Source: Amoebophrya sp. A120 (lineage: Eukaryota > Protista > Dinoflagellata). Taken from it: a stretch of DNA of 64,000 nucleotides. The notes beneath the pieces are model-generated. The model had not been told where the DNA came from, searched no databases, and saw only the letters and a program-made list of their open reading frames with translations. The position numbers were made by a program, and so were the translations under genes. The stretch is from contig CAJINV010000006.1 of the NCBI GenBank assembly GCA_905178155.1, positions 3,844,130-3,908,129 of the forward strand. The letters are read 5' to 3'. This document shows positions 1-60,275 of the stretch, one piece after another. The stretch's first letter is position 1. Each line of letters opens with the position of its first letter.

Positions 1-3000
1 TTTGTAAAGCACGAACGGCAATACAAGCATCAACAAGAGTGCCGGTTTTGCATGACAAATTTGCATCACATGAGTGTCTCCTTAGGCTACCACAACTTGC
101 CATGTAAGCGCTACCAAGAAACAAAGGGTGGATTGGGTATTTTGCATGACAAATGAGGGAATGGAGGGGAGTTATGCATTGTCATAGATGCTTCCGCAGA
201 GTCACTCTCCCGCAACACCAACTCGTCCTTTATCAGCTCCTTTTTCCCCTCATTTTCCTCGTCCTCGTTATCGATCGCACTCATGCCCCGGCTGCTCGCG
301 ACGAAATAGGTCACCCTCCTTTGCAGCCTTTCCCGCATATCACACAGAAAAAAAAGCTGCTAACACGTCATGGTCAACTACATGTGATGCAAAAATGAAT
401 ACCAATACGTATCTATAATAGTATTGCCACGTATCCTTCATCTACACAGCACGCGTATAGGCTCGGCTATGGCGGATCATTTTTGATTTTTGCATCACAG
501 ATTTTTGATATGGTGTGCTTCGCTTTTTTCATCTGTGGGATACCGCATGGAACGGCAGGTGACGCCCGGTTTTTTCTTCATGAAGTATCGTTCCTTAAAT
601 TCCAGCGCGTTCTCCGTTTGAAACCCGGTCTATGCATCACAAAAGCATCGTGGCTGAAGTAGTGTGCAAAATTTCGCATCACATCGGAGGTCTAAGGGCA
701 GTCCGTCCCTGTGCCTTTTCTAGGCCTACTAAAACCAATAAATCGCGACTACGTAGTGTAAACTTCTACTGAAAAGCTAAATTGGAAAACTTAGTAAGGC
801 TACTTCTACGTAAGCGCTTGTAAATAAGTACGCGATCAAAAAAGGTTTTGGCATCGCATAATTGTTGCCACCACAACAAGTGCGAATACCGCATCACATC
901 GGAGGTCTACGGGCAGTTCGTCCCTTTGCCATTCAGAGGCCTACTAAAGCCAGTATATGCTAAGCTACCTCGTAACGTAAACTTCTACGGGAAAACTAAA
1001 TCGGAAAAAACTTAGCATTGCTACTTAAGCGCTTGTTTTGTTGAAAAGGGAATAGTCATGCGAGGTATATCCGTTTTTTAGTGATGGGATTTATATTAAA
1101 TCCTTGTCGTGCTGCTATAGCAGGAACTACTTGCACGATACTTTTGCAGCGGATACGTTTGGATCTTTGTCAATCTCTTCACTGTATTTCGACGTCGATC
1201 CTATCAAATGCAAAAGTGTCTGCGTCTGGAAGGTTGGAACTTGTGATGCCAACTTTGGACTCTAAAAAAATCTGTATTGCATGACCCGCAAGAGGAGTCT
1301 AGTTCTTTGTGCTACGCGGGGAGGGCGTCTGTCATGCGGAGTAGGCATGATCAGTAAGCCCTCTAGAAAATCTGTGCCGCTAGGTCGTGCATTACAGACA
1401 TCCTGGGTCATGCAAAACATGCATGACAACTCTCAGAATCTTCCAGACCCAGACATTTTTGCATTTGATAGATCCGGGCAACAGCCCAAACGTCCGGTGC
1501 ATTGCGACTACAATGAGTTCCATCTCCGGCTTCGTAAACACGAGCTGGCAGGGAATTTGCCCCACGTCGTCGTCCTGTAGATCCACTTGATCCTTCAACA
1601 CGTCAAAAAAGTTGACGTCAAAAGTCGGCCGCCAGAAGTGCGTGTAATCGTGGATGAACCTGGTTTTCGTTTTTTATGTTTGTTATTCGTTAGGAAGTTG
1701 TCCTATGAATGCGCTTTCGCATCACAGAATGATATCCGGATTCATCACCAGCCTGTCATGCACAGCAGCGAGAAGAAGTGGAACATTTGCTTCGTACTGT
1801 TTCATCCATGATCATAGAAGGAAGTACTTAGTAGTACCCCATGCTGCTCTTAAAAGCCAGCTTCTGCTTTGCATTCCGCTGCATTCGGACATAGAGTCTC
1901 TCCACTAACTCTGCCGTCAAAAACGCGTCCCGCACTTCAGCCGGCATCTTGTACTCTGCGACGAAGTGCTCGCGCTCGTTGAGGCGCCGCCCGGATACTG
2001 TTGTTTGATGGAATACGAATATCTTTTATTTTTTCAGAAGCATCAAAACCCTCCGTCTTTTCATACTTGCGTATCCACAAACCTTTCCGCATGACAAATG
2101 CACACGGTCTCTGACGGCAAAAGAGGATTGGAACATTGAAATGAATATATCGACATCATCAAAATACACATCCCGGGCTCCGTTTTCCCTAGTAAGTCCT
2201 TTCCCGCTTCGGCAAATCGGACCGGTCGTTCGACTTGGACGTACGTCTGTAGTTCCTTCAGCATTAACCCTTCTGTTTGTTCGAAAAAGTGCGACGCCTG
2301 CTTCTATGCAATACAAATTTCCCCATGGCATGTACAAAATACATCACAAATTTCGCCAACAACTTAGGGCACACAGTTTGCCATGCTGAACAGGATTGAA
2401 AGGAACAAGCTTTGTCATGCAGCAACGGCATTTGTACTTGTACGGTTGGAAATTAACTGTGGATAGCTTCAGAAAGGGTTGCATCAGGCTCAAGTGCGTG
2501 CGAAACTTCGTCTGGATGCACTTCACGTGCTCGAAAAACCGCTTCAGGCCCTCTATTATCGGCACGGTATCCTGAGTAAAAACGTACCCACACCAGAGTT
2601 GTAATGCAAATCTGCATGCTGAAAATGTTTCTCATGCGGAGCCCCATGAGTAGCATTTTCTAGTCGTGTTTTGCAATTTGTCATGCTCTAATCAGCATGG
2701 TATGCTAGATCTGTGATGCTGCTGAGGTAGCTCAAACAGCACTACACTACGAATCCAAATTTGTCATGCAAAACAGCCAAAACTTGTGGATTTGTCTAGC
2801 CGATTCCCCATCTTGACTCTGGTGTGGGTACGTTTTTACTCAGGATACACGGACGGGGTTGTTCTCGCGAGGAAGTTTACCAGCCTTTGCGCGTGGAACT
2901 TCTTGATCCTTGGTTTTATCAGCAACCGGTATCATATATGCATTGCAAATACGTCTGGGAGGTGGTGTGGAAACTTGTGATGCGAAACTTCAAGGAAAAT

Positions 3001-6000
3001 CATATCTGTGATGCACGACGTCCGAATAGGATTGACCAACTTTTTTGTCATGCTGGATTATAGCAGTTTCTCATGCTTAAATCGAACGAATATGCAAGAA
3101 GCTGAGGAAAACTTGTCATGCTGTTAAGCCGAGCAAGCGGGTAGTGTGCGACGCAAGTAGCAGCAACACAAGTTTCGAGATGTACGTAAGGGAAAATGTT
3201 CCACCGGCCCCAGTTTTCCACAAATTGAAAAAAAAAAAAATCGCTCCGTCTCCTCCGGTAGTGGCTGACGTTGTGCGTCACCTTGGTCCACTTTCCCAAG
3301 TTCCTCGTGGCCGCGCATCCGGGTTCAATGATATGCAATGCAAAATCTGAACTAGCTAGCGGCGCACAATAGTAACTAGATTAAGACTAACACTTTGAAG
3401 ATGCGTGTAGCTTTGTCCTATTTTCTAAGACAATTTTCTGTAGCCCGGCAGGATGAACCGTCATGGAGGTCAGCAAGGCGGACGCTCCGAGCAGCGGCCA
3501 GCGGTGTAGACGTTGTAGTGCGGATACCTCGTCCCGAAGCGCAGCAGTTATTGTTCGCCGAGGTTCATCTGGACGGGCCTCTGTGGGACCTTGTGCGGCA
3601 AGATCTCCGCATCCGGATCTGGTGGCGGTCGGGAGGCAGCTAGCGAGCAAGAACAAACGAAGAAACAGCGACGACTGGCGCAATGGCCTTCCTTCTCCGA
3701 CCAATGCGCGGCCACTTCATTGCATGTCAGCAGCAGCTGCCTACGCCCCAAAGCCCAAAAATCAGCAGAATGGAGCGGCAGGAAGATCGTAGTGGGCACG
3801 ATAGCAAACCAGGGCCCTGCAATATCGATCACGATCGCGCAGCCTTCAGGAAATAGAATCGCCGCGCTTGAAGTCACAGGGCGGAAGGTCTCCGGCGCTA
3901 GTAGCTACAAAAACCCGGAACGCGGTCCGCCAAAGTGAGGCCCTTTTGGCCGGGGCCGATACAAGGCCCAACACCAATCACAGCACGAGCCGCAACACCA
4001 ACAGGCCAGAGGCGTCAAATGTTGCGCATTTACAAGAAGCACCTTCAGGCCGTGCCAAGTGCCCCTCTTGGAATCACCAAAGAAGCCACCGGCCTGCTAG
4101 AAGATAGTCACCCAAAAAGCACTGCTTTGCACTTGTCTAGGTTCGTAGCAGCATGAAACTTCTTGCGCGCCATATGAAACGGGGGCGCGGCCGCGACAAA
4201 TTGAGGCGGAGAAACGGAAGCAGTTCATGCACATGCTGGGCCCGGGGATCAGCGTTCTGGCGTCCCTGAAACAGGTCGGGAGCCCCTTCTCTTTTGCCCC
4301 GGCCGGCTCGTCGTTCGAGTTGGCGACGACCTTCCGAAGACCGCCGATCGTGCTGGAGCTGGCTGGTGGGGTGAAATTGGGCTCAGCGGCCCATCGGGAT
4401 CGTCATCCTGAGCAAGCCCGGCCGCATCCTGTTGCGCAGCCTGCCCTCCTGGTTGCGCCGCCTGCTGCCGCTGCGTGTCGTTCTCGTCGACGCCGATTGC
4501 GTCCCCGATGCGGGCCGAACCCACAATGGCCTTCGCTATGATTGCCAAACACAGCGCCCGGCTTTTTTTCTGCCACCTTATTGCGCGGCAGCCACCCCAC
4601 CGCCCTGCCTCCGCGCCGCCGCACAAGATGGGGGCGGCTGTGTGCGGGCTCATGAAAATAAAGAGGAGTATGACTGCGGCGCGAAAATGCCACAGGGCGA
4701 CGGGCGCAGGGGGCGCAGACTCCGGCCGGCCCGGGCCGCGCGGGGGGCGCAACAATTTGCCGCGCCAGGGTAGCCAGAAGCCGGCGCGCGGCATTTCGGC
4801 GCCGGAGGGGCCGGCGCCGAAGGAGCCGAAAGCGAAAAACCGAGACGAGCCGAAGGGCCCCCGCCTCGCCAGTCTCCCCCGGGGGTCTCGCGATTTTTTT
4901 CGTTTCTTGTGGACGTTTTTGAATAAGGACCTGAGTCGGTCGATTTTGTGGCCATTTTGGGCGCCCCGAACCGGGTCGAATTTGCCCAATTTCCTCGTGA
5001 GTGTCCAGGGGAGGTCTCCGGGGTCGCCGGTAACCAACGTTGCCAAGAACTGGAGGCCCCACCGAGTCGCCTTCTGCGCGCCTTTCGCGCGACTTTGATG
5101 CCCACGCGGTCAGGCAAAGGCCACTGGCGTCTCGGGCAAGGCGCCCAAAAAATGGCGCCCGGGGTGGTGGGCCGGCGAAATCAGGTGGCGCGGGGCTGCC
5201 TGGGGGTTTTGTGTTCTCTAGGGTGCCTAGGTCCAGCGTGGCAGTTTTGGAAAAGTGGGACGCGTGCCTGTCTTGAGTGCGTCCTTTAAGTCTTGCCACC
5301 CTCCCTCCCGCGTTATGTCCTGGCGCCTGTTTGGGAGAATTCCCACCCTTTATGCTGCGCAAAAGTGTCTGCCACGGGGGAGCTCCTTCTAGGCATGTCA
5401 TGCACAGTCTGCATTGCGGAAAAATCTGCCATGCATGTCTTTCGGAGAGGCATAGCCCCCGGAGAGCACAAAGTCGGCCCATCTGGGGCGGTAGCGCGCT
5501 ACCGGGGTGGCAAAGGGATTCTCGTCGGGCGGGGGGCCCTCGAGGGTGGGGTCATTCGGCGTCCGGTGTGGCCAATTTTCTAGCAGCAGACACTGTTGCC
5601 GTCCTTGTCTCGAGTCGCTTTCCGACTCTTTTGCGCGCGTTTTTCCAGTATTGGTAGGTCACCCCATTGCTGAAGCCCTTTTCGTATTTTTCTCGCGGCG
5701 GCGTGTAGCGTCGTATGTTGTGCAAAGGTGCTGCGCAGGTAAGGTGGCCTGGTTAACGCTCTGCGGCTCAGGAGCCAGCTCTGTGCCACTGCGTGCGTTC
5801 TCCTATGGCTGGCCCACCATGCGGAGTCAGTTCCTATACCTGTGCAGCATCTTTGCAAAGCATAGCGCGACACTTTCGAGCTCTTGCTGCAGTGGTTGTT
5901 GCTGCGGTGCATCCGCCCGAGCTGCGGAAACGCCCGCGCGGTTCCGGTCACCTCCAGAGTGTGTTTCCATTCGGAACTGTTCTGGTCCGTCAGACCGACA

Positions 6001-9000
6001 CAAATTCAGTGGCCACTCTTTGGGTCACAGAGTGGCGCACCCGGGGGGGCCTCGCAAGAGATCTTGTCCTGCAGTCCGGGGACATAGGTCCCAAATATGC
6101 CCAAGCAGGACAGGGGCTTTTTCTTTGTTGGTTCTAGGTGCGTCCTGTTGCCTGTTGCCACCGTGAGGAGCATGCTACGAATCGAGCAACACAGGCACTA
6201 GTGGTTTGGGCTTTTCAAGTTCATCGCCGTCATTGGGTGCAGGGAGATCTACAATTATGGCGACAGTGCTGAGGTACTCATCTACCCACAACCAACGGCG
6301 AGCCATTGGCAGCAGATCTGCGAGCATGTTTGCTGTGTCGAGACGCGGCATCGAAACGGCCTCGCGACGACGTACTGCAGCAGACGAAACCGGCAGCCTC
6401 CATCCCGCCGGAAAATCTGGAAGCCGAAACCGGAGAGGTGGAGTGGATCCGGAGCCGGAGGTGCTGCGGTGTCGTAGCTCTAAAGCCTTAAAGTTAGCGT
6501 ATCTATTGTGCGCCACTAGCTAGTTCAGATTTTGTCTTCCATAAAACAACTCCGAGGCCGCGGAATGGGAGTCGACCTGGGTTGCCGGAATCGAATGCCG
6601 CCCAGCGAGTCCCCTGCTATGCGATACATATGTTGAAAAAAATTTTGCATTTTGTGGAAAACTGGGGCCGGTGGAAAATTTTCCCTTACGTAAGATGCTG
6701 ACCCAGACATATTTACATTTTCTACCGCACCCGCGCGATCTTAAAGAGAAACCGGAACACCTTTGTACCGCGCACTGCACGCTTCAACTTGTGGATAAAC
6801 CGAAATACCCGAACCATGGCGCACCACCGGCCCTCGTTGTACCGCTTCCGCGCGTCGGGGGAATTGTTCAGCAGCAGACGGTGCATGATAGCTGGAGTGG
6901 GAAAATGAAATTTGTGAAATTTCTACTTTCGTTTTGCTATTGCTTTTGGAACAAAAAAAAAACAAAGACAACTTTACAAGTACATGCGAAGCTCTGCTGC
7001 AACATGAAGGCGGCCCATCTTCGTATTCTCCATTCCTCGTCTAGAACTTCCTCATCCCCGGCGGCGGGCTTTTTTCCAAACTGCGCAAACCCGGGGATCA
7101 TGGTCATCATCAGATTCGTCCTATGCATTGCAAACATCGTCGATCTGGGTCTCGATTTGTGATGCGAAGTTTGAAGGACAACCATATTGTTCATATCTGT
7201 GATGCATGCTGTGGAGGAACTATGGCGATAATATTCTTTCCGATGCATGATCAAGAACTGGGAGCTAGTTTGTGAAAAATGCTCTTTGCACAGTTTTCCG
7301 GAGAACGACCCTGACATCATGTTTGCACCAACCATACTTCCCACTGGGTCCAGAACCCCCCGCGCCGGTGTTCAGCAGCAGCCCCTTCCTGGCGTATTTT
7401 CCCTCTTCCTGCAGGTAGGCCATCTTGTTCAAGTAAGAAACCCCGCTGTTTATCACACCCTCCATCTTCTCCCGTTTAGCTGAATTCAAATTCCGGGTTA
7501 CCTGATAGTTATTTTCATGTTTGATGAGATGATGTTGATCTCCAAACTTTATTTCACGTATAGCATACGTTAAATGCGATCACTTGCGATGCAGAGATGA
7601 CCCGCATACTGTAGTACTGGGCTTTTGTCATGCAGAAAAACGGATGCACGGCAAGAGTACGGAAAAAAAGCTCGAATTATATTTATACCCGTAACTCCTT
7701 GTGGAACCGTTCCTGTTTTATCTTCGCGTAGATCTTTTCCCTTTCGCTCAGCTTGAACTGGTTTATGCACTGCAAAAGCACTCCTCTTTGCACCAAAAAC
7801 TACGACCTGTGCAGCACTCATAGTGTGCAATTTGTAATGCTAGTAACTCCGGTAATATCAGCATAAGTTTAAGTACTACAAGGCAAAATTCATCTGTCAT
7901 GCAGTATCTTTGCAAAAAGTTGCGCCATGTCTTTCGTTTTTGTGGGAGTTTTTTTGCAGAGGATATGGTTCGTTTTGTTTTTATTTCGCGAAACGTAGTC
8001 CGTTAGCTGCCCGTCGCTCGGGGCGGTTTGTGGTCACTTATGCATTTTTGCAAACGTGTCTGGGAGGTCTGGAAGGATGCGAACCTGTGATGCGCATTTC
8101 ACAGCACGCACAAACCTCTCATGCATAGGCAGCAAAAGTTGCTCACTTCCTGGCACCGAAGTGGACGTCGATTTGTCATGCGGATTAGGCGTTGCGAAAC
8201 CTTCTCAAGACCTGTGATGCTAGGGCCGGCTTCCATGCCAGACCTTCCGTGTCATGCAAAAACAGCATGGCAGAAATCTGCATTCTTCCAGACCCAAGCA
8301 TTTTTGCATTTGATATCGCTGCTTCAAGTCAAATTCCATCTTGACCCTCTCGAGAAGGCATCAAATGCAAATAGGTCTGGGTCTGGAAATTTGTGATGCT
8401 AGAATGTGCATGACAGAAACGCTCCCTCATGGAGGACAGCGTGACAAGTTTGCAGAGCGCTTCCTCATACGCACTCCGCATGAGAAACTGCGTTGTTGTA
8501 TGACAAGAGAGGCTGCGACTTTTGTTGGTCATGCAATACAGATCTTCTCACAGGAATGCAAGACCAGCATTACAAGTTCCAACTTTCCAGACCCAGACAT
8601 ATTTGCAATGCATAGAAAGGACGGGTTACCCAATCCGAGACAGGATTTCTGGATTTTCTCCACGTCCACCGTTTCAGTTACGTCGTTGCTCGAGGCTGCC
8701 CCCTTGTTGCTGGTTTTGTTTCCGTGCTGGTCGAGGATTTTTATGGGTAGCAACTGCCCAGAGGGTATCCTGTGAAAAAACGTCCCCACCCCAGAGTTGT
8801 CATGCAAACCTGCGTGCCTATAATGTTTCTCATGCGCAGACCCATGAGAAGCATTCCCTAGTCGTGTTTTGGAATTTGTGATGCGCGAATAAGCGTGATA
8901 TGCTAGATCTGTGATGCTTCTGAATCTGAGCCAGCCAAACCGGCATGCACTACAACATGGCCAAACTTGTCATGCGCAACAACCAAAAGTGGCTGATTTG

Positions 9001-9465
9001 TCTAGCATATTTCCCATCTTGACTATGGGGTGGGAACGTTTTTTCTCAGGATAGAGGGGGAAAAGGCTAGAGACTTCGGGCTCGCATCCGCACCCGCCGC
9101 GTTCGCTAGTTTAGCCGCCTTCTGCCGCTGCAGTTTCAGCCGGACCTCCGCGCGGATTTTCGCGTTTCTTATCGTGTGCAGATTGTGGAAGCCAAAGGAT
9201 TCGCCCTCGATCTTTACTTCCGGCTCGGTTATGCAATGTAAATTTCCCGCATATGTACAAAATGAGCATGACAAATCTTGCTAACTTGCAGTGTCCAACT
9301 TGTCATGCTAGACTAGGACTGAAGGCAAGTTTTCTCATGCAGAGACTGCATTTGTACGTCGTGTACGGGAAATTTACTGTGGATATCGGCATCGTCGTCT
9401 TTACTCCCCCCGCCCGCGCCGCCCGGCGGGTTCGAACTGGAGGCGGCGCCACCCTGTTGCTCCAT
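1..9465 (-). CDS. Multi-exon hypothetical protein with IQ-like motifs (gene 1; 3' end runs off the left edge of the window)
   Basis: ATG at 9465 (MEQQGGAASS...). Removing introners 9230-9385 and 8766-9053 plus one direct repeat each joins the frame (...DDDA|EPEVKIEG...AFSPS|GQLLPIK...). Other joins: KIARVR|LLIKPRIKK (across 2930-6723), TTPSV|PIIEGLKRFFEHVKCIQTKFRTHL (across 2568-2847), GLLPGS|TSKYSEE (across 1202-1470). IQ-like segments are VKCIQTKFRTHL and AAFMLQQSF. Some introns (~1650-1925, ~6890-6990, ~7490-7690) are degenerate and unresolved. Confidence 0.7.
1202..1470. mobile_element. Introner family A (mostly ~250-290 bp; TIR TATSNNNTGYAAAWRTGTCTGGGTCTGGAA), representative copy, TSD GATCC
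   Basis: TIR and 5-bp direct repeats read directly. Other members: 2930-6723 (holds a nested element), 7122-7336, 8039-8315, 8359-8614, 11670-11921, 11960-12221, 18023-18300, 18662-18931, 19578-19862, 20072-20354, 25853-26104, 26792-27053, 31282-31548, 35502-35753, 35836-36098, 38329-38607, 38980-39239, 40041-40295, 40851-41116, 41324-41558, 43874-44136, 45705-45971, 48554-48814, 48889-49162, 50516-50778, 51414-51682, 52575-52835, 53277-53554, 53918-54203, 60004-60275. Confidence 0.95.
2305..2465. mobile_element. Introner family G (~155 bp; ends TATGCAAT..AAATTT / AAATTTACTGTGGATA), representative copy, TSD GCTTC
   Basis: Other members: 9230-9385, 36780-36929 (TGAGT), and a partial copy at ~13660-13764. 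Confidence 0.88.
3183..6692. mobile_element. 3.5-kb TIR DNA element nested in a family A introner
   Basis: 42-bp TIR TACGTAAGGGAAAATKTTCCACCGGCCCCAGTTTTCCACAAA at 3183-3224 and 6651-6692 (one mismatch). TSD AGATG at 3178-3182 and 6693-6697. The host introner's right arm resumes after it (...ACAAGTTTCGAGATG|CTGACCCAGACAT). No intact transposase ORF was recognised. Confidence 0.9.
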
Positions 9466-10215: not shown

Positions 10216-11081
10216 AACAGCCACCAGCAAACCATCGTCCGCACACGAAGGGTCAAAAATGGAGTAGGCGTGGGCCTGCGGGCCTAAATTCCGGTGGGTT
10301 GGTCGGTTGGTTGGTTGGTTTTGGACAGACGACATTTGACCGAATTTACGAAGTATGGAGAAAAATCCCTGCTCGCTCTTGGCGAAGAGCGGAAAACCAT
10401 GCACCTGTCGCGGAGACAATAATCTCCTCGAAAAGATTATTGTCTCCCCGACAGGTAGATGGTTTTTTGTGGAGATTATTGTCTCACTCGCCGATACGTA
10501 GAGGTCGGAAATTGAAAATCGGAGCCCTGCCCTCGGGGGTGGGGCGGCTCCACGGTTTTGAATTTAGAAGACAGCCGCAACGGCAAGGAGGGCGAAACAC
10601 GATAAGGGGGTGGTCGGGGCGCGCGGCGCACCTGCCTCCCTACCGGGGCTGCAGCCCGCCGCTGCGAGGCAGAGTGCGATGTGTCCACGCAACACAGACG
10701 CCAATCTGTGTTGCGCGGACGCCAATCTGTGTTGCGCGCACCACAAATCTGTGCTGCGCGCAGCTCGCCGCAGACACAAATCTCCGCTACGCGTAGCACA
10801 AATCTGTGTCGCGCACAAATCTGTGCTGCGTGTTGCGCACAAATCTGTGTTGCGTGGACGCAAATCTGTGTTGCGCGCAGCAAAAATCAGTGTTGCGCGC
10901 AGCTCGCCGCGAGCACCAATCTGTGTTGCGTGGACGCAATCGGAGCTCCGGGGGGCCTCGTGAGAATTTGCGCGAGATAGAAAGAGGTCGGGGCTCCAGT
11001 GCTGCATTTTTCTCCAGCCGCGACCTGCGTTTCCTCAACAGCCACCAGCAAACCATCGTCCGCACACGAAGGGTCAAAAAT
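10216..11081. mobile_element. 776-bp insert flanked by a perfect 45-bp direct repeat
   Basis: AACAGCCACCAGCAAACCATCGTCCGCACACGAAGGGTCAAAAAT occurs at 10216-10260 and 11037-11081. The interior holds a long hairpin and a minisatellite. Confidence 0.7.
10690..10940 (+). repeat. Imperfect minisatellite, ~20-bp unit with core CAAATCTGTGYTGCG
   Basis: About ten head-to-tail variants such as CACAAATCTGTGTTGCGTGGA and CGCCAATCTGTGTTGCGCGGA. Confidence 0.9.
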
Positions 11082-11241: not shown

Positions 11242-13313
11242 TCAAACCCAAATTTTTTCGGGTTTCAGCATCAAGGTTTCTCGGTGCGATAGTTTTACGC
11301 TGTACCGATTTTCCTCGTTCACCCCGTCTTCACTCGCTATCACCCCAAAACAACCGTTCAAAAACGGCTTCGCCTGCAGGTTCTGTATCACCACCGGCGT
11401 GCCCTTCGGCCACTTGATCTTATGCAGCGGAAAACGGAATAAACCATTGTACATACTACTACGCGTAATTTTTGCATGCTAAATTTCAATTCTTTTTCGG
11501 AGACATAAGAACTGTGACGCAAATTCAAGTAAGAAGGCGCATCTGTTGCCAGACTCAGACTGCAAAAACTACAAGTACCACGAGTAGTTGTACGACACTT
11601 TTATTTATTTCACCGGATATATTTGCGAGGGTAGCAAAAACTCCTTCGTTTTTGCTTTCACGTACCCCGTATCAAATGTAAAAATGTCTGGGTCTGGAAG
11701 AATTCAAGTTTGTCATGCTTGTCTGGCATGACTCTTAAATCTGTCATGCACGTTAACAAAGAGCCCCACTTTTCTGTCATGCAGAAACGTAGTTTGTCAT
11801 GCAGAATAGGCAACACCTAGAAGCTCAGAAACTTGTCATGTTGAGCCAGCAATTGTTGCCTCCTCATGAAATGCCACACAGCATCACAAGTTTCCAGACG
11901 CAGACATTTTTACATTTGATACCCCGTTTCCCGTTCCGCGTCGACCGGCTGCGCCACCTTATGCACTGCAAAAATGTCTGGGTCTGGAAGGTTGGAACTT
12001 GTCATGCTAAATCTGAATCGCGCAAAAATCTGTGTTGCATGATTACCAAATGCTGCCCACTTTTGATCAAGTTGAGAGGCAGTTTCTCATGCAAGATAGG
12101 CATGATAGTGATCTCACGGAATCTGTCATGCTAGGTCCTCCATTACAGATCATATGGGTCATGGAAAACCTGCATGACAAGTCGAGCAAAGTTCCAGACC
12201 CAGACATTTTTGCAATGCATACACCTCTGAGGAGTGCCACGAAAAGTGTTCGACTTTCGTGGCCGACTCAGTATAATCGGGCTCATTTGTCGGTATGGTT
12301 ACCGGAAACAAGTTCCTCCGTCTCAACGCGGTCAAAGGTTGATTTGCAGCAGCGCTGAGATTGTTCTCTTCCGTGAGCTCGATGATTTCCACTAAGACCC
12401 GAACATCCTGCCCCTTGTAGTTGTACCCTCGCACCTTGGCAAGCTTCCCGTTCAGCTCCTGCCGGGCCTCGAGGAATAAAATCTTGCAGAAAGATATCGC
12501 AAGAAAAAAGTGTTACAGTTACACATGGTGTTGCAGGCCCAGTATGACAGACAACCTCTGTCATGCCAGAAATGCTTTTGAGCCTCGTTTCATACGTGTT
12601 TTCCCTTATGATCTTTGCATTCCAAGTTCTCTTTCTCATGCGGAGAAAATTTGTGTTGCTAAAATGACAGCGAGTGTGTAACTGTAACACTTTTTTCTCG
12701 TGATAAAAGAATCCAGGGGCAGAGGGCGGGACCCGGCGAGGGCGCAGGTTTCCAGCGTGGACTGTAAGTACTTCTTGACCACTTGGTTCTCCAATTGTAA
12801 ACTCCCACCCGAGGAGTTCTGGTCCACCGACTGCGCATACCGGATCACGTCCTCCCGGAGCCCGGCTAGGCAACTCCCCGCATCATCGTAGTTGGAGATG
12901 AGATGGATGCTGGGAATCCCCTGCACGCCGTATTTGATGCACATCTGGTCGCGGAGCCCTGCCTTTGCAAAATCGACCGCGAGCCAATCGTGCGGCATTT
13001 CCTGTCCGAAATACTGCTGAAATTCCTGGTCCGATTTGTCCCGCGAAACAAACACGATCCTGACCGTGCCCGGCGGAAACTTCTGGGAGAACTGGGCGAC
13101 CAGGGGGGTAAACTGCCGGCAGGGCGGACACCAGTGGGCGGAGAAGTAGAAGATAACCACTTCCCCTTTCTTCAGCGAAACCTGGTCGGCGGTTTTGGAA
13201 ACCACTTTCCCCGCGAGCTTCTCCTGGAAGGTCAAGTGGGGAAAAAACTTGTAGATGATGTGGCTGTTGGAAGCTGCCAGGGGGTCGACCCCTTTATTTG
13301 ATGTGGAAGCCAT
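11242..13313 (-). CDS. Thioredoxin-fold oxidoreductase of tryparedoxin/nucleoredoxin type, with two C-terminal 'L..xPxLNG..G.V...RY.V'-type modules
   Basis: FYFSAHWCPPCRQFTP, IVFVSRDKSDQEF and KYGVQGIPSIHLI are TryX/nucleoredoxin-like motifs. The frame is restored across introners 12495-12705, 11960-12221 and 11670-11921. The last exon (11242-~11455, VIQNLQAKPFLNGCFGVI...RYSVKL...LKPEKI) resembles the earlier FLEARQELNGKLAKV...VRVLV segment. The last intron (~11456-11619) is not exactly resolved. Confidence 0.85.
12495..12705. mobile_element. Introner family E (~160-220 bp; TIR TATCNNNNGAAAAAAGTGT...), representative copy, TSD AAAGA
   Basis: Other members, probably several subfamilies: 338-542 (CCGCA), 16384-16544 (TAGAA), 19256-19475 (AGACA), 21059-21275, 28250-28464, 51740-51959 (GACAC), 52903-53111 (AAATG). 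Confidence 0.9.
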
Positions 13314-13336
13314 CTTGGGCTTCACTTTAGTACTGT

Positions 13337-16300
13337 ACTACACTACGAATCCAAATTTGTCATGCAAAACAGCCAACACTTGTGGACGTGTCTAGCCGAT
13401 TCCCCATCTTGACTATGGTGTGGGTACGTTTTTACTCAGAATATTTCATTATGTTTGCTCGTAAGTCCTAGGAATGCGTCTTTGCACCATAGACTGATAA
13501 GATCATAACATATGCGTACTCATCACCAACATGTCATGCGCAGCAACGAGAAGAAGTGGAACATTTGTGTCCCTGTCCTGCTGTACTGTTTCATCGTATA
13601 GAAAAACTTACTTAAGTACCCCATGCTGCTCTTAAAAGCCAGCTTCTGCTTTGCATATGGCCAACTTAGAGCACACAGTTTGCCATGCTAAACAGGATTG
13701 AAGGGAAGCTTTGTCATGCATCAACGGCATTTGTACGTGTACGGGTGGAAATTAAATGTGGATAGCTTCAGAAAGGGTTGCATTAGGCTCAAGTGCGTGC
13801 GAAATTTCGTCTGAATGCACTTCACATGCTCGAAAAACCGCTTCAGGCCCTTTTGAAGAGAAACCGGAATCTTGAAGAGAAACCGGAACACCTTCGTTAT
13901 CAAAATGAAAAATCCCCCCACCCCATACTCAAACTAGAAACTTGTGATGCAGATTTGTGGTCACAAATCAGCTTTGTCATGCTAGAAGGGAAAAGATGCG
14001 AGCTGTAGTGCTGGTTGGCGTGGGAATAAACCTTCGCATCTTCAGCATGACAGGGGGCAGCTGGAAGTGGGAAACAGCATGAAAAATTGCCTGCAAACGA
14101 GGCCACAGCTGCGTCGGTCTCTTGGCCTTCTAGCATTACAAGTCGATTTGTGAGTGTACAACTCAAACACAGCATCACAAATTTCGTTTTCGATATGGGG
14201 ACGAGGGGGGATTTATTTTCCTTTTGATATTCGTCCCGCGCACTGCACGCTTCAATTTGTGGAGAAACCGAAACACCCGAACCATGGCGCACCACCGGCC
14301 TTCGTTGTACCGCTTGCGCGCGTCGAGAGAATTGCTCAGCAGCAGACGGTGCATGATAGCTGGAGTGGGAAAATTTATGAAGTTAGAACTTGTCATTGTG
14401 AAATTTGTACGCTGGTTTTGCTTTTGGAACGGAAAAAAAGCAAAGATCTTTGGGCGGGAGCCGAACTGCTTCAGATTTCTCGGCAGCTTCGTCTGGCTGT
14501 GTTGTGTCCCGAGATCTGGGAAAGTTTCCAAATTTCGGATGTGGAAAGGGGTCGACCCCTTTATTTGATGTGGAAGCCATCTTGGTCTTCATTTAGCAGT
14601 GCCTCCGTTATGCACTGCAAAAGCATCGTACTAGTGTAAATTGCATTACAAATTTTGCCAGCATGAGAAATAAAATTTGTCATGCGGATTTACATTAAGA
14701 AAAAAATTTGTAATGCATGACTGCAATTACTACGAGTACGATACTTTTGCAGAGGATATCCGTTTATCATCGACAAACCGACGTCTTCTTCCGCGTGGGA
14801 TGCTATGACAGTGCACAACTTTCCCTCCCTCTCATTTGTCAAGCATGAACAGCAATACAAGCATCAACAAGAGTGCCGGTTTTGCATGACAAATTTGCAG
14901 CACATGAGTGTCCTTAGGCTACCACAACTTGCCATGTAAACGCTGCCAAGAGGCAAAGGGTGGATTGGGTATTTTGCATGACAAATGAGGGAATGAAGGG
15001 TGAGTTGTGTACTGTCCTAGATGCTTCCGCAGAGTCACTCTCCCGCAACACCAACTCGTCCTTTATCAGCTCCTTTTTCCCCTCATTCGCGTGGTATGGT
15101 GAGTAAAAAGGTCCCCACACGACCAGAGTCAACATGGGAAATCTGCTAGACAAATCAGCAGGCTTTGGCTGTTGCGCATGACAGATTTGGGCTCGCAAGG
15201 TAGTCCGATGCTTAGCTAGTGCAGCAGCATCACAGACCTAGCACATTATGCGGATTTGAGCATCAGAAATCTCAATCATGGGTCTCCGCATGAGAAACAT
15301 TAACATTTCCAGCAGCATGCAGATTTGCATTACAACTCTGGGAGGGTCGTGGGGACGTTTTTACAAATGATACGTGGTTTTCCTTCTTCACCCACAAATT
15401 CTTCTTCTTCAATTCCTCCTCCAACTCCCGGCGCACCAATATGGAATGCAAATCTGTCTGACTCTGGGTCTGGAAATTTGTGATGCTAAAATGTGCATGA
15501 CGAAAACACCCCCTCATGCAGGAAAGCATGACAAGGTTGCAGAGCACTTCCTCATACGCGCTCCGCATGAGAAACTGCGTTTTTGTATGACAAGAGAGGC
15601 CTCGACTTTTGTGGGTCGACCCCTTTATTTGATGTGGAAGCCATCTTGGTCTTCCCTTTAGTACTGTTGATCTTAGGAACAGCAAAAAATCTTCGGCTTG
15701 AAGTATTACTTCAAAATGTCCGCTTAGGTCCTCAGGGGACCTTCGACCCACCCAGGTGGGTGGGCCTTAGGTCCCCTGCCCTAAAAATTATTACAAGATA
15801 ACAAGGAGCCTAGACGCTCTGGTGGTGTCGGCCTACTGTTACACCACACGGCGCAACCCCCGGCGAATCACGACCGGAATAAGCGCACCGATACCGATAC
15901 CAGCTAGCTCGGGCGTCTGCGCCCAACCAAAAAAGAAAGGTCATGAGTTCGGCTCTTCATGGAAAAAGGGGCGACGCCTCCCACCCCTTGGTCTGCCCCC
16001 GGTGGCGCGAGCTTTTAGCCCGAGCTTCCAACAACTAAGAAAAAAGTGAAGCTTCCAGACCCAGACATTTTTACATTTGATAGTAAATTCCTCCCGTCCA
16101 ATCCGGCACCGCCGTGAATTGGAAGGAGCGGTAAAAGGAATTTCGGTACAGTATCACAGACGCACCTTTCGCGCAAAACCCGTACTTATGCGTATCGACG
16201 GAGATGGACGTGCAGCCGTATCCTGGGCAAAAGTACTATCGCTGCACTCGAAGTACCTCTAATCGCAGACATGCAAGACAAATTTCTTTTGCAAGGTAAA

Positions 16301-16337
16301 GCACCATGACAAATTCCATTTGTCATGCTCATGCTGA
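13337..16337 (-). pseudogene. Scrambled fragments of gene 1 and of the S1P lyase gene, interleaved with copies of the thioredoxin start region
   Basis: Approximate matches: 13337-13443 to 2741-2847; 13450-13655 to 1680-1875; 13660-13851 to 2357-2552; 13872-14455 to 6741-6965; 14850-15087 to 1-254; 16083-16329 to 18581-19099 (lacking one introner). Confidence 0.88.
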
Positions 16338-17394
16338 GACCCCTTTATTTGATGTGGAAGCCATCTTGGTCTTCACTTTAGAATATCACAGGAAAAAGTG
16401 TTAACGTTAACGGTTTTCACAGATTGCATTCATGCATCACAAATGTAGCCCAATATGCATGCTATGCATGACAAATTCTGACACGTCTTGTGATGCATTT
16501 CTGCATCACAAATTCCGTTAACGTTAACACTTTTTCTTGTGATATAGAAGTACTGTTGATCTTACAAACAGATAAAAAAAAAAACAGCTTGAAGTAATAT
16601 AAACAAGCGTTGAAAGTCAAATGATCAGTCTACTAGGTGCTAGGGATGAGAGGAGAAAGCGAGCTCCACATAAGTGTGCCGTTGATCTCGAGGGGCTAAA
16701 AGTGATGCTGTATTGCAGCGGCAACCTAGTACAGAAAGCTAGCGCCGTGCGGGTTCTACAAACCAAAGAACGGAATTGCGGCGTCTTCTCGTCGTGCCTG
16801 GTTAAAAACAAAATCTAAATGGAAAGAAAACGAAAAAGTATACCGAGCAAAAAATGATTTTCATAGGCTTTTGAGGTCGTGGTCCTGCAATGTCAGGTGC
16901 AGCAGATGCAGAAGCAGATGTAAACATCAAGGCAAATAAGGGCAAAAGATGGCTCTCAGCATGTTGAACGTCTACGTCAAGGTCAACATTCTAAGTACAA
17001 ACGTAAAAATAACAATTGTACTGGATCGCTAGACAAATTCGGACCCGGGAGCCGAAGCGTCATCTTCATGTTGATATCCTTTTCATCTCCTCACTGATCG
17101 AATGATGAAAAAGAACTATGTGCAAGATCATTGAGTACTAGTAGAAGAACATACGTCAGCTCTTGCATTCCGATTGCTGCGCAGGTGTAAGAGCAACTAC
17201 GTGTGCGAAAGAGTTCTTGGCTCTCATCTTCATTTGCACCAGCTCTAGCCGGACACCTGGTAATCACGTGGACATCAATAATTCTTGCCACCTTTACCTA
17301 CATCTTTGTTGTTCTTGTTCACAATCTTCGTGACTAGTAACACCAATCCCCGAAAAAACTCGACGTTCTCGCTTTATCAATCGATGTTTTCATA

Positions 17395-20300
17395 TCACTC
17401 TGCCGTTGCCGCCGGACTTCTTTGTTCTGCCGGCGTGGTTCCTGTGGTGGTGGAGGAATTATCGCCTGATGAACCACCGCCACAGATTTCGGACGAAGTA
17501 GAAGTAGAAGTAGATGGAGACGTCACTGTTTTCTGCACCTTGTAACACGAATCCAGGTACACCTTGGTCAGGTCTCCCGCGAGCGAATTTGGGATACTGG
17601 CCGCCATTCCGTAGACGCCGGCCGCGGCTTTCTTGTTCCACGCTGGATCTGCAAGACAAATCTCCACCGACTTTTCCAAATCCGCAACGAACCGACTCTC
17701 GCTCTCCTTGGTTGTTTCGTCCAGCACATAATCGGCCACCGCCACCGGGAGCGTGACACACAGGTGAATGCTTGGTGGGTTTTGCAAGGAGTTCAAGTTC
17801 CAGTCGAATTTCTCCCGCATTATGCTCGCAATCGCGTAGATGTTCACTTCTTTCGGTTTTCTCGACGCCAGACACACGACGGAGGTGTCGCACTTCCCTA
17901 GCTGTTGCAGGTACTGGCAAATCAAAGGCCGTCGTGGTGGTGGTGGTCCTGGTTCATCTTCTGCTGGTGTACTAGTGGTTTTTGTTGCAGCAGCTTCCTG
18001 TATCTCCGCCTCGATCCTGCGTTATGCATTGCAAATATGTTGTCTGGGTCTAGAAAAGTGCAGGTGAAGTTTGTAATGCAAATTTTGCACGACCCAGAGT
18101 GTCTGTTATGCAAGACCCAGCATCACAGGTCGCGCTTTGACAGCCTCGCGATGTTGCCTACTCTGCATGAGAAATCCGCTCTGAACATGGCCAAAAATAG
18201 ACAGCTTTTGCTGTTCATGCAATACAGATTTTTGTGGGCTCTGAAATGCGCATCACAAGATTCAACCTGCCAGTCCCAGACATGTTTTTTGCACTGCATA
18301 TGCGTGCGCAGGCGACAATTTTTCCCGTGCACTCCACATATCCGTCTCTTCCAAACGAAACCAAAGCGGCGTAAGTGGTCGCCGCAATGCCGCCGTTCTA
18401 TGAACTGCAAAAGTATCGTACTCGTAATCGTATAAATGCATGACAAATTCCCTCAGCATGAGAAATAAAATTTGTAATGCGGACTTACCTTGAGAAAAAA
18501 AATTGCAATGCATGATTGCAATACGAGTGCGATACTTTTGCACAGGATACGTTCCGGCTCCCGGCGATGGTGGGGGTCGCGTAAATTCCTCCCGTCCAAT
18601 CCGGCACGGCCGTAAACTGGAAGGAGCGGTAAAAGGAATTTCGGTACAGTATCACGGACGCTATCAAAAGTAAAAATGTCTGGGTCTGGAAGATTTCTAG
18701 ACTTGTCATGCAGGTTTTGCATGAGTCTTGATGTCTGTGATGCGTGCCCGAGCATCACAGATTTTTTGAGGGTTTGAGGGCTTCTTGATGCCTATTCCGC
18801 ATGACAAATGCCATCTCCGCGTAGCAAAAATCACATTCCCTTTGCCGCTCATGCAATACAGATTTTTTTGCAATCCAAATGCAGCATCACAAGTTCCAAT
18901 CTTCCAGACCCAGACATTTGTACATTTGATAGACGCACCTTTCGCGCAAAACCCGTACTTATGCGTGTCGACGGAGATGGAGGTGCAGCCTTATCCTGTG
19001 CAAAACTAGTCGCTGCACTCGAAGTACTTCTTATCGCAGTCATGCAAGACAAATTTCTTTTGCAAGGTAAATCACCATGACAAATTCCATTTGTCATGCT
19101 GAGTCAATTTGCAATGCAATCTGTTACTACTAGAAGTACGTGCGCGATAGTGCTTTTGAAGTTCATAAGCCGCGCAACTCGGCAAAAGTGAAGGGTTGAC
19201 TGGTCTTGCCTAATCCGGCCAGCTCGATGAAAGGGAGTAAAAACCCGCCCAGACATATCACAGGAAAAAAGTGTTACAGTTGCACACTTGTTGAAGTTTC
19301 TGCATCACAAAGTTGCTCGACATGGCAAAGAAAACCTGTACCTGTGATGCGCAGACTACAATGGAAAACACGAACGAAATGAGGCTGGCATGCATTTCCT
19401 GCATGACAGAGGGTGTCTGTCTTGCTTGTCTTCCATTAGAGTGTGTAAACTGGAAAACACTTTTTTCTCGGGATAAGACACGCGTCCACGTGAAAGGGAA
19501 TTTTGTTCGGCACGGCAATCTCGTCACTGATGCTCAACAACGGATCCATGGCTCCGTTCGGGTAGTTCGGGGCGGAGTTTCACATGCAAATATGTCTGGG
19601 TCCGGGAGAATGCAGATATTTGTCCTGCTCCTGCTGTTTTTGCATGACACAGAAGGGCTGGCATGGAAGCCCTAGCATCACAGGTTGCGAACAACAGGCA
19701 TCCCAATGCCTAATCCGCATGACAAATCACCTCTTTCTGCATGACAAGAAGTCGTAGTCGAGCCTTTTGCTGGCCATGCATGACAGATCTTGGCATGATG
19801 TAGAAATTCGCATCACAAATTCGAACTCTTCCAGTTCACCCAGATATAAAATGCATTTGATACGGAGCCCACAACCGCGACTGTGTCCTCGTCGACCAAT
19901 TTCTTCATTTCCGCGACGTTGACGCCTCCCGGAACTACTTTTCTGCAGCTCCCGGTCGAATCTACTACGTCTGCTTGTTCGCCAGCAGTAGCACCTCCCG
20001 CAACGATTCCGCACTTTCTTAACTTGATGCCGAAATACAGGGCCGCTTTGTCGAAGGCAGCGTGGGCGGTGTATGCATTGCAAATATGTCTGGGTCCTCT
20101 GGCAGGATGCGAACTTGTCATGCACATTTTGCAGGACCCGTGACGTCTGTGATGCTGGTGCTAGTGTCACAATCTTTATTTTGAGAGTGTCTTGATGCTA
20201 CTTCTATACGCATGAGAAATGCCCTCATCTCCGCGTGCCAAGAACTACTGGATTCCTCTTGCTGCTCATGCAAGAACACAGATACTTTCAGAATCCGCAG

Positions 20301-22292
20301 ACAGCATTACAAATTCCACTCTTCCGGATGACCCAGACATATTTGCAGTTGATACGGTGACAGGCAAGACAATGTTCGGAATCCGGGTGTTGCTGGGATC
20401 GGTTAGCTATTCTGTGCAAAAGCATCGCACTCGTACTAATTGCAAATCTGCATGACAACTCTTCTTCCAAACGTAAAACAGCATTACAAATTGCATTTTT
20501 CATGCTGAGCAAATTTGCAATGCAATTCATACGAAGTACGATGCTTTTGCAATGCATATTAGCTCGATGTTGTTCTCCGAAAGCCACTTATTCCGATACG
20601 ACAGCATCGCCATCAAAATGGATTCCGTTCCCCCAGTGGTCAGAGATCCACACACGACGCATCGTAAGGAAAAATTCCCCCTGCCTATATCGAAAAGGAA
20701 GCCACAGAAAATTTGCGATGCTGATTTGTGACCACAAATCGTCTCTGTCTTGCAAGAAGGCAAATCCACGTGCTGCGCCGCATTATGCAGGTGGTTTGTT
20801 ATGCTTTTGGGCCTACAGTGTGGACACTTGTAATGCTAGGCGTCTATGGAAAAACCTCGCCGCCCAGGGTTGGCATATGCCTGCAGTCCTCTACTGCAAG
20901 ACAAATCTGATTTGTGTACGGAAATCCAGCATCACAGATTTCCGTTTCGATATGGGGAGGGGGGATTTTTCTTTTTGATACGAGGGTGGCACTGGTTTGT
21001 ACTTCCTGACGTGACTGCTCTACTTTCCCTTGTTGACTAGTAGTTGCGCCGGTAAACGTATCCAAGAAAAAATCTGTGTTAGTGTAACTTTCTTTCTTTT
21101 TGGTTGGCAGCATCACAAATTTGCTCTACATGACAGAGAAAACCAGTCATGCGCGGATTGTCCAGGGAAAACACACAGGAAAAGAGGACATCATGGCTGT
21201 CTGGCATGACAGGTGTATACTCTGTTGCATGTTCTGCATCACAGAGTTACACTTACACAGTTTTCTTCTTGGATAAAACAGGTCGCCCACCATGGCGATC
21301 ACTTCGGCTTCCAGCTGCCGGCAATTGTTGAACAAGTCGGAGTGGAGCGGGTTGGAGAGTATGAAATGCAAAAGCATCGTACTAGTATGAATTGCATTAC
21401 AAATTTTTCCAGCATGAGAAATGAAATTTGTCATGCGGATTTACTAATGCATGACTGCAATTACTACGAGTACGATACTTTTGCAAAGGATAGAGAGCAT
21501 AAACATCCCGTACGCTTCCTTCATCACAGTGTTCACATCAATCGCCAGTGCAGAGGAAGAGTTGTCTTTAGTTTTGCTCCTGGGTTCATCTTGTTTCGTG
21601 GGCATCTTGTTCAAGTCCGCGGATTGATAGTAGACGGCGCCGGATATTTTCCCGTTGTTCCAGTGGGCTTTGTCTTCGTCCGCTCGAGATTGCAGGAGTT
21701 GGAGGATCTTTTCCTTGGGAAGCCCCGCCGCTGGCAAAGCGGTGTAACAGGAGGAGGAGGAAGACGCTGAAGATGTTCTTACTCGCTCAGTGTTACTTCC
21801 TTGTTTCAACACTTCTCTTGTCGTTATAATTGTCGCGTCCAAGTTTTTGGACAATTCGGTGTCAAAGCCCGTTTCCATCTTCACCATCTCTTTCTCGATT
21901 TTGCTCCGCGTGCCGAACAGGTTGTACTTTTTGAGCACGTTTTGAAAAACCGCCTGGACCAAAAAACGCTCGTACACGTAGAATTTAGCCACTTGAAAAA
22001 TGGAGTTGTTGTGATCCTTCAGCAGAGTCTGCATCGGCTTCCAGACGTGTTTGCGGATCAGAAACACCGCAAAGAGGAAGTTGAAGATTTGCCGGAGTTG
22101 TTTTTTGTGCAGAACGTGCTTCTTCAAAAAGCTGTCCAGCTTAGGCGGAATTGGTAGCAGTAGATTGTCCGTATTCACGACTGCCAGCGAAAGAAACTGG
22201 ACTTTGTGTTGCAGAAACAGCAAGAAAGCTGGGTAGGTCAACAGCCAGTCGGCTGTGGAGGAGTTCGTGGGGAACGGTGCGGGCGGGGGCAT
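17395..22292 (-). CDS. SGPL1: Sphingosine-1-phosphate lyase (PLP-dependent group II decarboxylase family), interrupted by 11 introners
   Basis: Motifs seen after removing introners: [83 protein letters not shown] (PLP lysine), DWTGGIYATPTIAGSR, LNSLQNPPSIHLCVT, GVYGMAASIP. A hydrophobic N-terminal segment is present. Start codon 22292 is inferred. Confidence 0.93.
18399..18549. mobile_element. Introner family B (~150 bp; TIR TATSNNNTGCAAAAGYATCGTACT), representative copy, TSD CGTTC
   Basis: Other members: 631-1155 (expanded), 7764-7965, 14609-14758, 18992-19167, 20408-20558, 21360-21492, 26594-26743, 35254-35403, 37042-37190, 39290-39451, 40577-40729, 45041-45190, 46753-46908, 50869-51038, 53609-53757, 56726-56893. 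Most have perfect 5-bp direct repeats. Confidence 0.95.
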
Positions 22293-58261: not shown

Positions 58262-60275
58262 GAGAGCAGCGCGGCAATGCTTGAAAAACTGAATTGAGTG
58301 GAGGTCTACGGGACGTGGAAAGAAGTAGAGGAGCGACTGACAAGTACTACTTAGGCTCAGACGACATGCTACTTTACCTAAAACAGGTTGATACGTAGCC
58401 GGGCAGCCAGTGGGCTCTTGTCCTCTACTAGTTGTCCGAGCAGAGGCAATTTTAACCTTCTCTGTGAAGATCCAACTTATGGTGAAGTAGAACTTTAAAA
58501 GCAACGAATTCGTTGCGTCAGACAGAACGAGGTCGGCAACTACAACAGGTTTCTCTTCGAGGCACGGACCAAGAACGAGGTTCTTGTCGGACGAGGGAAA
58601 TGAAAAAAAGAGCAAGTAGTACTAGTACAACTCCACAGAACGATCACAACGTACGTTTGATACCTGAGCAAGCACGACGTAAAAAGAAAAACGCTACGAC
58701 AACGACCTGAACGACAGGACGATTACATACGATCTACAGAGCGCCAACAAGCAACCGGCATATAATCTGCGACCTTCGATGAATACTGAATAGTCAAAAC
58801 AACGAAAAAATCGCTGCACGAACGACGAGGAAAATATTGCTACAACATTCATCGTGCTGGCCTCTTCCTACCAGCACTTGTGCTTCTGGAGAAGTACAAC
58901 TCACCGGTCGTTTACAAGAAGAAGAACTTCGTCTGCTATAATTTCTGAATTCACAGTCGGTGCTCGCTATTGGCAAACCTGTACTCGTCCGGGTTCGAAG
59001 TCGGTGCTCGCTATTCACACCGGGGCCATTTTTAGGCTCGCTATGGCAAACCTGCAGCATCCAGGGACCCTGACAAGGCTCTCGCCCCCACGGCTTTTGG
59101 TAGATTAAGCAACATCCGTTCCCAACAATGACGAAGAACAACGCCGAAGAACACTTTTTAAGAGATAAGTCAGAAGGCTACTGGACGCCATTGCCATCAA
59201 TTTTTATCACAAGCAAAAAAACTTCTCACATGTTGGGTAGACGGCGACGGGCTACGACTTGACAGAGTAAAGCAATACAAAATAGGTCCCAGGCAGGCTA
59301 TGCACGTACGAATCAAGTCAAAGACGTCAAAGCGAGAGGAGAGTCGTAGTTGTAAAACTTTGAGTTTGGTGCGCATGTATTTTTATGTGGTTTGTTAATA
59401 TGTACTTTTGGTGTGTCTTTCTCAGAAACTACATACAAATTGTGTTGTTACTATGTATAAGGACATCTTTTTCCACATAGATATAACTTTCTGTGCGACC
59501 AGCGCGTAAATATTGATTGTTAAGGTAAAAATGGGAGCCAGGGTTACAGTACTTCATGTGGGATGCATTTTCGAAATACTCAGGGGGCAGAAAACTCTGA
59601 ACGAAGACTTCTTGAAGGCTGCTTGTACTTGTGCTTGCTAACTAGTGTCTGTCTCTGTAAAGTTCTTTTGAAAAATAAAGGGTGATGCTGAAGGAAAACC
59701 GATATGTTTAAAGCTGCGAGCTTGGCTGGAAGAGTTGTGGGTGATATCATGTATCGTATACCCGGACGCAAAAAAGAAAAACAAGTTGGCGTGGTATCAC
59801 AGTACTCTAGAAGAATACTTACGGACGAAGTCCAAAGGCGTACATACTTTTACCATGCTTAGTTAGACTTACCACTTTTTTGAAATTTTAGGCACTTGAC
59901 AGAAAATCAAAATTTGAGAAGATATTGAACTTGAAAAAATAAAAATGCGCTTTTGCGCAAAAAATGAAATACTTTTGCAATTCTTCGCTTAACTAGTTGA
60001 TTTCATGCACTGCAAATATCAATATGTGTCTGCGGTCATGCTAGGCCGGCGTGACTCGTCTCAGGTCTGTCAATGTCATGCAAATTAACACCACAGTGCT
60101 GCAGTTCTCTGTCATGCTCATGCAGAGCCGCTGTTTGCCATGCAAAACAGCCAACACCAACACCTATTTACTCAAGTCACAAACTTTTCATGCTGAGTCG
60201 GCAATTGCCGAGTCGTCATAATTCGTCTACCCGCATCACAAGTTTCCAGACCCAGATCGATATTTGCACTTGATA

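Follow-up and report, generated by a model that had tools for sequence, protein, structure and literature searches.

The segment at 13337-16337 of the window (the whole stretch of 64,000 nucleotides of Amoebophrya sp. A120 DNA that was analysed) is a real, transcribed 3-kb insertion of scrambled pieces of local genes, taken from a diverged copy of the neighbourhood in which it lies. The locus is read as a repair scar of a known kind with a diverged donor, and as a probable fossil of a second lineage. The evidence supports a donor that was a separately evolving, functional copy of the neighbourhood, held under purifying selection for about 0.2 dS. With the two leading readings of its origin taken together, the locus very probably records an exchange between lineages about that far apart. 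The first of these readings, template-switching break repair that copied a diverged homologous chromosome, is given about an even chance.

The window encodes Amoebophrya sp. A120 proteins, as found by exon-by-exon chaining of two database proteins on the minus strand. Gene 1 (1..9465, minus strand; P0004, 691 aa) runs past position 1 and matched no Pfam family in the domain search, and the S1P lyase-like gene (17397..22292, minus strand; P0125, 785 aa) has a best PDB match at E 9e-83; both are source loci of the patchwork. Between them lies a nucleoredoxin-like gene (Thioredoxin_8, E 7e-19) with its ATG at 13313, for which a close relative was not found among proteins of 111-354 aa. An Rfam search of 1-24000 gave no match. 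Introns of 130-330 bp with TAT...ATA inverted ends and 5-bp direct repeats, the introners, are abundant across the window.

Other repeats were recorded in the same DNA. A GC-rich 3.5-kb element at 3183-6692 is nested in a gene-1 introner, so that the protein model splices 3793 nt. Its terminal inverted repeats are 50 bp long and enclose another inverted pair, a 5-bp direct repeat is present, and its six ORFs have no Pfam match. A 530-nt gene-1 intron holds an internal duplication of 77% identity (675-821 and 890-1036). An insert of 776 bp at 10216-11081 contains tandem and inverted repeats and is flanked by an exact 45-bp direct repeat, which is close in length to the duplications that frame the patchwork. 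Toward the far end of the window lie a perfect tandem array with an 18-bp period (60579-60685) and a duplicated non-coding segment (58448-58967 and 63395-63920; 75% alike). The latter was ruled out as a second patchwork, being rich in indels and without an open frame, and none was seen among the other low-copy self-matches listed for the window.

In the patchwork, three inserts separate four copies of the 5' end of the nucleoredoxin-like gene (its first 45-55 bases or so), which start at about 13282, 14549, 15613, and 16338. Copy 1 (13281..13336, minus strand) carries the functional start, with the ATG at 13313 and a perfect 12-bp palindrome at 13281-13292; copies 2-4 start within a few bases of this palindrome. 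Copy 4 starts at its exact centre and runs on into the resident upstream DNA. The palindrome is a post hoc clue, since the window holds 32 perfect palindromes of 12 bp. The pieces come from gene 1, the S1P lyase gene, the nucleoredoxin upstream region, an out-of-window gene termed gene X, and repeats. In total, 1728 of the 3001 bases trace to single in-window sources (the donor-only introner counted), and all eight pieces with such a source keep its orientation. The preliminary description, which had reported fragments of both neighbours in scrambled order and source orientation, is borne out in this, although the lyase contributes one piece only (16083-16329). That description did not include the four nucleoredoxin 5' copies, the intron differences, or the transcription and splicing.

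Insert A (13337-14547) contains four gene-1 pieces, all on the minus strand, and a repeat. Piece A1 (13337..13443) is part of the gene-1 introner 2568-2847 (source 2741-2847, 95%) and ends exactly at the introner terminus. Piece A2 (13449..13656; source 1674-1874) combines a gene-1 GT-AG intron, which differs from its source by 10% substitutions and many indels, with 11 unchanged codons. Piece A3 (13662..13851; source 2360-2552) joins part of a gene-1 introner to an exon with four synonymous and no replacement differences. The A3/A4 junction bears a templated duplication (13853..13888) in which 17 bp at 13853-13869 are repeated exactly at 13872-13888. Piece A4 (13869..14446; source 6738-6968) is a gene-1 exon with part of a GT-AG intron, showing eight synonymous and three replacement differences, and is interrupted by an introner at 13898..14229 (minus strand) that has 5-bp direct repeats, is missing from the resident exon, and is spliced in RNA-like runs. 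The repeat at 14449..14542 has a copy at least 99% alike in another genomic context, and loose ends of contigs of sequencing run X1 fall at 14449 and 14542.

Copy 2 of the nucleoredoxin 5' end (14548..14596, minus strand) is preceded by a 9-bp duplicate of its own internal sequence (14538-14546). Insert B (14597-15612) begins with the gene-1 3' end (piece B, 14597..15087, minus strand; source 1-254 and beyond the window start), which carries two spliced introners at 14609-14758 and 14804-15020. A lyase origin considered for 14596-14758 was rejected, the 82% match being a family resemblance and the flanking exon belonging to gene 1 beyond the window start. The remainder of the insert is the gene X piece (15088..15612, minus strand), made of an introner (15095-15372), an exon (15373-15435), and part of another introner. 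An X1 contig matches it over 15373-15600 with 10 other letters. Its 23-residue translated piece had no protein match in the database search. The piece may resemble valyl-tRNA synthetase. The stretch 15463-15617 was also considered as a copy of 8376-8530, and a closer source exists outside the window.

Copy 3 and donor-type upstream sequence (15613..15708, minus strand) differ from the resident by substitutions at 10 of 64 sites and lack the resident introner. Insert C (15709-16337) opens with multi-copy sequence (15709..16047) containing a 22-bp hairpin at 15733-15778, followed by a truncated introner end (16048..16082, minus strand) that abuts a lyase exon exactly, at a place where the resident has no intron. 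Piece C (16083..16329, minus strand) holds two S1P-lyase exons with six synonymous and no replacement differences, joined without the resident introner 18662-18931, and part of the next introner. Copy 4 (16338..16383, minus strand) is on the resident side and gives an 11-codon upstream ORF. Beyond it, in the 5' leader, lies a resident-only introner (16384..16544, minus strand) with near-perfect inverted repeats and many exact copies, which is spliced.

Templated duplications or microhomology were found at 4 of the 13 junctions, namely, duplications of 17 bp (13853), 9 bp (14538), and 6 bp (16330) and a 4-bp microhomology (15613) that was judged from a family copy; the remaining junctions look blunt or have sources outside the window. 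The marks at these four junctions are compatible with the serial template switching that had been proposed for the locus. Aberrant transposition was considered for the junctions at introner termini, and the two cases are too few to tell from chance.

The stretch is present in public sequence data at the depth of single-copy DNA. Exact contigs of X1, which is possibly the assembly's own sample, cover 13414-13644, 13627-13925, and 14177-14365 at a depth of 42-52, where the nucleoredoxin exon has 44 and resident gene 1 has 48; over the patchwork as a whole, exact contigs lie at 36-56 versus 44-48 for neighbouring single-copy DNA. At 99% likeness, X1 gives depth in 30 of 30 bins of 14300-16700, the lowest being 34. 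At least 5 of the 13 junctions are bridged by at least 31 letters on each side (13443, 13851, 14446, 14596 in its spliced form, and 16329), at least three more by 30 letters (13656, 14547, and 15087), and a further four fall within an intron across which RNA-like runs join the flanking sequence; junction 13336 has no bridge among the matches listed. One X1 contig mixes resident and patchwork letters and is read as a putative bubble collapse in contig building. An assembly chimera of mixed strains, raised in the preliminary description, would be compatible with the lack of a listed contig spanning the whole stretch and with the possible identity of X1 with the assembly's sample, but neither junctions missing from the reads nor aberrant depth was found, and spliced joints in runs X3, X4, and X6 of a second study link unrelated pieces. 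It can be given almost no weight.

Runs X3, X4, and X6 are public runs of a different study code from X1 and are called RNA-like from their intron-skipping joints, none being recorded as RNA. They behave as RNA because their joints skip 13893-14229, 14604-14758, 14799-15019, 15090-15372, and 16379-16544, all of which are introners. X4 and X6 further join 15435 to 16084 with no ambiguous letters, which defines a chimeric intron (15436..16083, minus strand) of 648 nt that contains nucleoredoxin copy 3, has no direct repeat, and is spliced. One of its ends comes from the gene X introner and the other from the introner end abutting the lyase exon; the two can pair at a computed -30.8 kcal/mol versus -50.9 and -37.7 for two intact introners, and the cut falls 1 nt before the stem and 4 nt after it. 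P0004 and P0125 have 27 introns, of which 21 pass an inverted-repeat filter; the protein models allow registers 0, 1, and 2 in all 21, and registers 3, 4, and 5 fail in 2, 4, and 6, respectively. The chimeric intron uses register 1.

The spliced leader region from 16700 is about 1.6 kb long with 34 ATGs, and after splicing, two junctions are in frame and yield upstream ORFs of 62 and 112 codons. The link of leader and nucleoredoxin ORF on one molecule is absent from the contigs because these are interrupted where the 5' end is repeated. The cell probably either tolerates the insert, as a long 5' leader that is spliced, or removes it by putative spliced-leader trans-splicing. At 16545-17000, an X3 contig of 1697 letters covers the stretch and extends about 1.2 kb toward the lyase gene, which suggests that RNA is continuous across the lyase-nucleoredoxin interval. 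Raw RNA under the same species label (X9), compared at 88% likeness, gave 90 reads that all fell on one introner end and none on the genes.

The mostly silent character of the exonic differences, as claimed earlier, is confirmed by counts over five blocks with exon limits from the protein models (154 codons). The 104 synonymous sites carry 18 differences and the 358 replacement sites carry 3, giving a dS of 0.196, a dN of 0.0084, and a dN/dS of 0.043, which is not near 1; the neutral expectation is rejected (p=1.5e-9). A model in which the resident was selected and the copy was neutral from the day of its formation, with an expected replacement share of 0.63, is rejected as well (p=6e-6, or 7e-4 at a conservative 2:1 site ratio). 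The preliminary counts hold for 13765-13851 versus 2466-2552, where all four differences are synonymous. For 16083-16218 versus the lyase exons, the seven reported differences are present and six are synonymous, but the seventh (16218) is not exonic because the splice register places it in the intron end. For 14230-14370, a few replacements had been noted; the gene-1 block 13869-14370, with the introner removed, has eight synonymous and three replacement differences, and these three are all the replacements in the data set. Two exon pieces of 11 and 22 codons have no changes, and the synonymous divergence is uneven, with 0 of 19 sites changed in two gene-1 pieces versus 18 of 85 elsewhere.

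The unconstrained parts are 10-17% diverged with many indels, while the protein is conserved. GT-AG introns differ at 23 of 217 sites (10.6%) with 17 indels in alignments that are rough where indel-rich, and donor-type and resident-type upstream DNA differ at 10 of 64 sites. Introner bodies differ at 31 of 508 sites (6.1%) versus 17% at synonymous sites, and since introners thus diverge less than synonymous sites (p=5e-4), the comparison suggests at the sequence level that they are under constraint or homogenised. If all replacements post-date the capture, its age corresponds to a divergence of 0.8% with an upper 95% limit of 2.5% (0.0245), far below dS. Over 27 nt of coding sequence, the four framing copies show no difference. 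On the basis of this identity, the repeat twin of at least 99%, and the replacement age limit, the capture is young, at most about 2.5% divergence.

Donor and resident differ firmly at three introner sites and probably at two more, and share seven; introner 14609-14758 was left out of this comparison. One firm difference is donor-only (13898-14229) and two are resident-only (18662-18931 and 16384-16544, the latter with a 3-bp indel beside it). The introner end at 16048-16082 is probably a donor-only insertion, and so, probably, is the gene X introner 15095-15372, where the resident gene X contig runs on unlike the patchwork. Any of these differences could postdate the capture. Introner 16384-16544, with an exact-match depth in the thousands versus about 45, looks young and may postdate the event. 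The introners here show TAT-starting terminal inverted repeats, direct repeats of 3-5 nt, and removal in RNA-like runs. The same TAT inverted-repeat and direct-repeat type is described for Amoebophrya A120 by Farhat et al. (PMC7789003, section 11), who inferred introner mobility, called proliferation 'still ongoing', and left the splicing mechanism open. In its available text, that paper compares only distant strains and does not contain the term 'polymorphi'; its supplementary Figs S19-S25 concern direct-repeat positions and could be relevant to the splice register. In Micromonas, introners are known to be polymorphic for presence or absence (PMC4540971).

When gene-1 and lyase exons were searched against the longer predicted proteins, each found the resident protein only, in a one-member cluster; as long-protein searches, these are weak evidence. 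Contigs over the exon pieces are unbroken and at single-copy depth, and a metagenome scan with a gene-1 exon gave one locus at 40% identity and no close relative. Because no intact paralogue was found and the contigs are single-copy, the donor is best taken to be the same neighbourhood in a second lineage. Of the earlier proposal, the separate functional donor is thus upheld by the dN/dS and the differing introner sites, and an extant paralogous segment was not found.

In the proposed mechanism, a break would have formed in the nucleoredoxin 5' end, at the palindrome centre with which copy 4 begins. Synthesis would then have stalled near the palindrome three times, switching to templates as distant as 13 kb or more and restarting just upstream of the nucleoredoxin gene, which would leave duplications of 45-95 bp. 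The template would be the homologous chromosome of a second lineage in the same nucleus, in a zygote or hybrid cell. One replicative repair event is inferred, and three separate events are possible. The several discontinuous templated segments within one insertion are those of FoSTeS/MMBIR-type switching, and the purifying selection relative to the resident is that of an inter-homologue or introgressed donor. Human complex insertions with microhomology and iterative template switches have been described (PMC5120786), and meiotic breaks, normally repaired on the homologue, can yield templated insertions (PMC7615360).

The choice of a homologue over the chromosome's own earlier alleles is an inference from the right edge of the insert. 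A switch of lineage at the break predicts donor-type and resident-type upstream sequences that differ right up to this edge, and they do, with a 3-bp indel about 45 bp away. A homologous template is favoured because resident-type sequence runs within about 45 bp of the edge. Against this, a template that is 5-10% diverged should be a poor target for strand invasion. The main competitor, a cis insertion from the chromosome's own alleles, after which recombination or introgression replaced the flanking lyase, promoter, and gene-1 alleles, is a tentative but substantial possibility. The insert would have kept the old alleles because it had no homologue to pair with. This account predicts the same dN/dS and intron differences, and thereby qualifies the earlier argument from silent changes: a decaying local duplicate would lack the silent bias, but a cis duplicate with resident alleles later swapped shows it too. 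Templated insertions arise often in mitosis, and if the age is near 1% divergence, recombination would have had many generations in which to act. If sex is not rare, the cis insertion fits nearly as well as a homologous template, but it requires that an exchange ended no more than about 45 bp from the right edge of the insert, beside a large heterology, and that alleles have a dS near 0.2 and many intron polymorphisms.

Readings that dispense with an exchange fare worse. A segmental duplicate that arose long ago in the same genome, stayed functional for a while, and was then lost would explain the purifying selection and independent introner gains and need no second lineage, but it is improbable, as no gene-1 or lyase paralogue was found among the predicted proteins, the exon contigs are single-copy and unbroken, and few tandem duplicates are reported by Farhat et al. 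(PMC7789003, section 5). Template jumping by a reverse transcriptase along a partly spliced pre-mRNA of the co-oriented block, with long target duplications, would suit the uniform orientation, the precise lack of introner 18662-18931, and the exact 45-bp duplication at the separate 776-bp insert 3 kb away. It is nevertheless highly improbable, given that most introns are kept, donor-only introns are present, no poly-A tail is seen, and a diverged donor is still required. The chance is slighter still that selection maintained an old local duplicate where it lies, as a gene for a chimeric peptide, for although the upstream ORFs of 62 and 112 codons could be its product, the lyase piece, with its six synonymous and no replacement differences, has no in-frame start, and the framing copies and captured repeat look young.

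Repair from a diverged homologue would mean that one genome preserves a trace of exchange, in a group for which mating has yet to be observed. Syndinean sexual cycles are stated to remain unknown, with gamete fusion not observed (PMC13693241, 2026), and little gene flow was inferred between Amoebophrya ribotypes (Cai et al.). The locus also supplies close-range presence/absence data for the introners whose mobility was inferred by Farhat et al., and its chimeric intron is a natural experiment on their splicing mechanism. The literature searched, which includes few subscription papers, contains no description of a comparable locus, of introner differences between alleles, or of genomic evidence for exchange in Amoebophrya. 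This is one locus with known repair chemistry, and the searches made (metagenome scan and public runs) found no second strain or population sample showing the donor alleles. A bolder reading, which is possible but rather doubtful, is that a hybrid of two cryptic lineages repaired a break by serial copying of the partner's chromosome and so left a relic of an unsampled genome within A120, that introners turn over at up to 5 of 12 sites within 0.2 dS, and that splicing is set by the pairing of any two related inverted-repeat ends in a fixed register (1 nt before, 4 nt after), without direct repeats or splice-site sequence.

Among known systems, FoSTeS/MMBIR and chromoanasynthesis resemble the locus in their several local fragments, duplicated flanks, and, at some junctions, microhomology or short templated insertions, but the templates here are about 0.2 dS from the resident with differing intron sites, all pieces share one orientation, and the same 5' gene end was re-copied three times (PMC5120786). 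Polymerase-theta end joining at meiotic breaks likewise gives insertions templated near the break with repeated priming (PMC7615360). The pieces here, in contrast, are 100-600 bp long and come from up to 13 kb or more away. Typical polymerase-theta inserts are smaller. Helitron or Pack-MULE capture also splices same-orientation gene fragments into a chimeric transcript, but here no element termini frame the patchwork, with no framing inverted repeats among the longest 25 of 71 pairs, the inserts are bordered by host-gene duplications of 45-95 bp, and the pieces come from the immediate neighbourhood. The published Amoebophrya A120 introners (PMC7789003, sections 11, 12, and 16; PMC12130899) share with the locus their TAT inverted repeats, short direct repeats, non-canonical splice ends, and RNA splicing. 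Whereas those accounts, in the parts cited, compare distant strains or copies within a genome, closely related gene copies differ here in where their introners lie, and splicing also removes a chimeric intron that lacks direct repeats.
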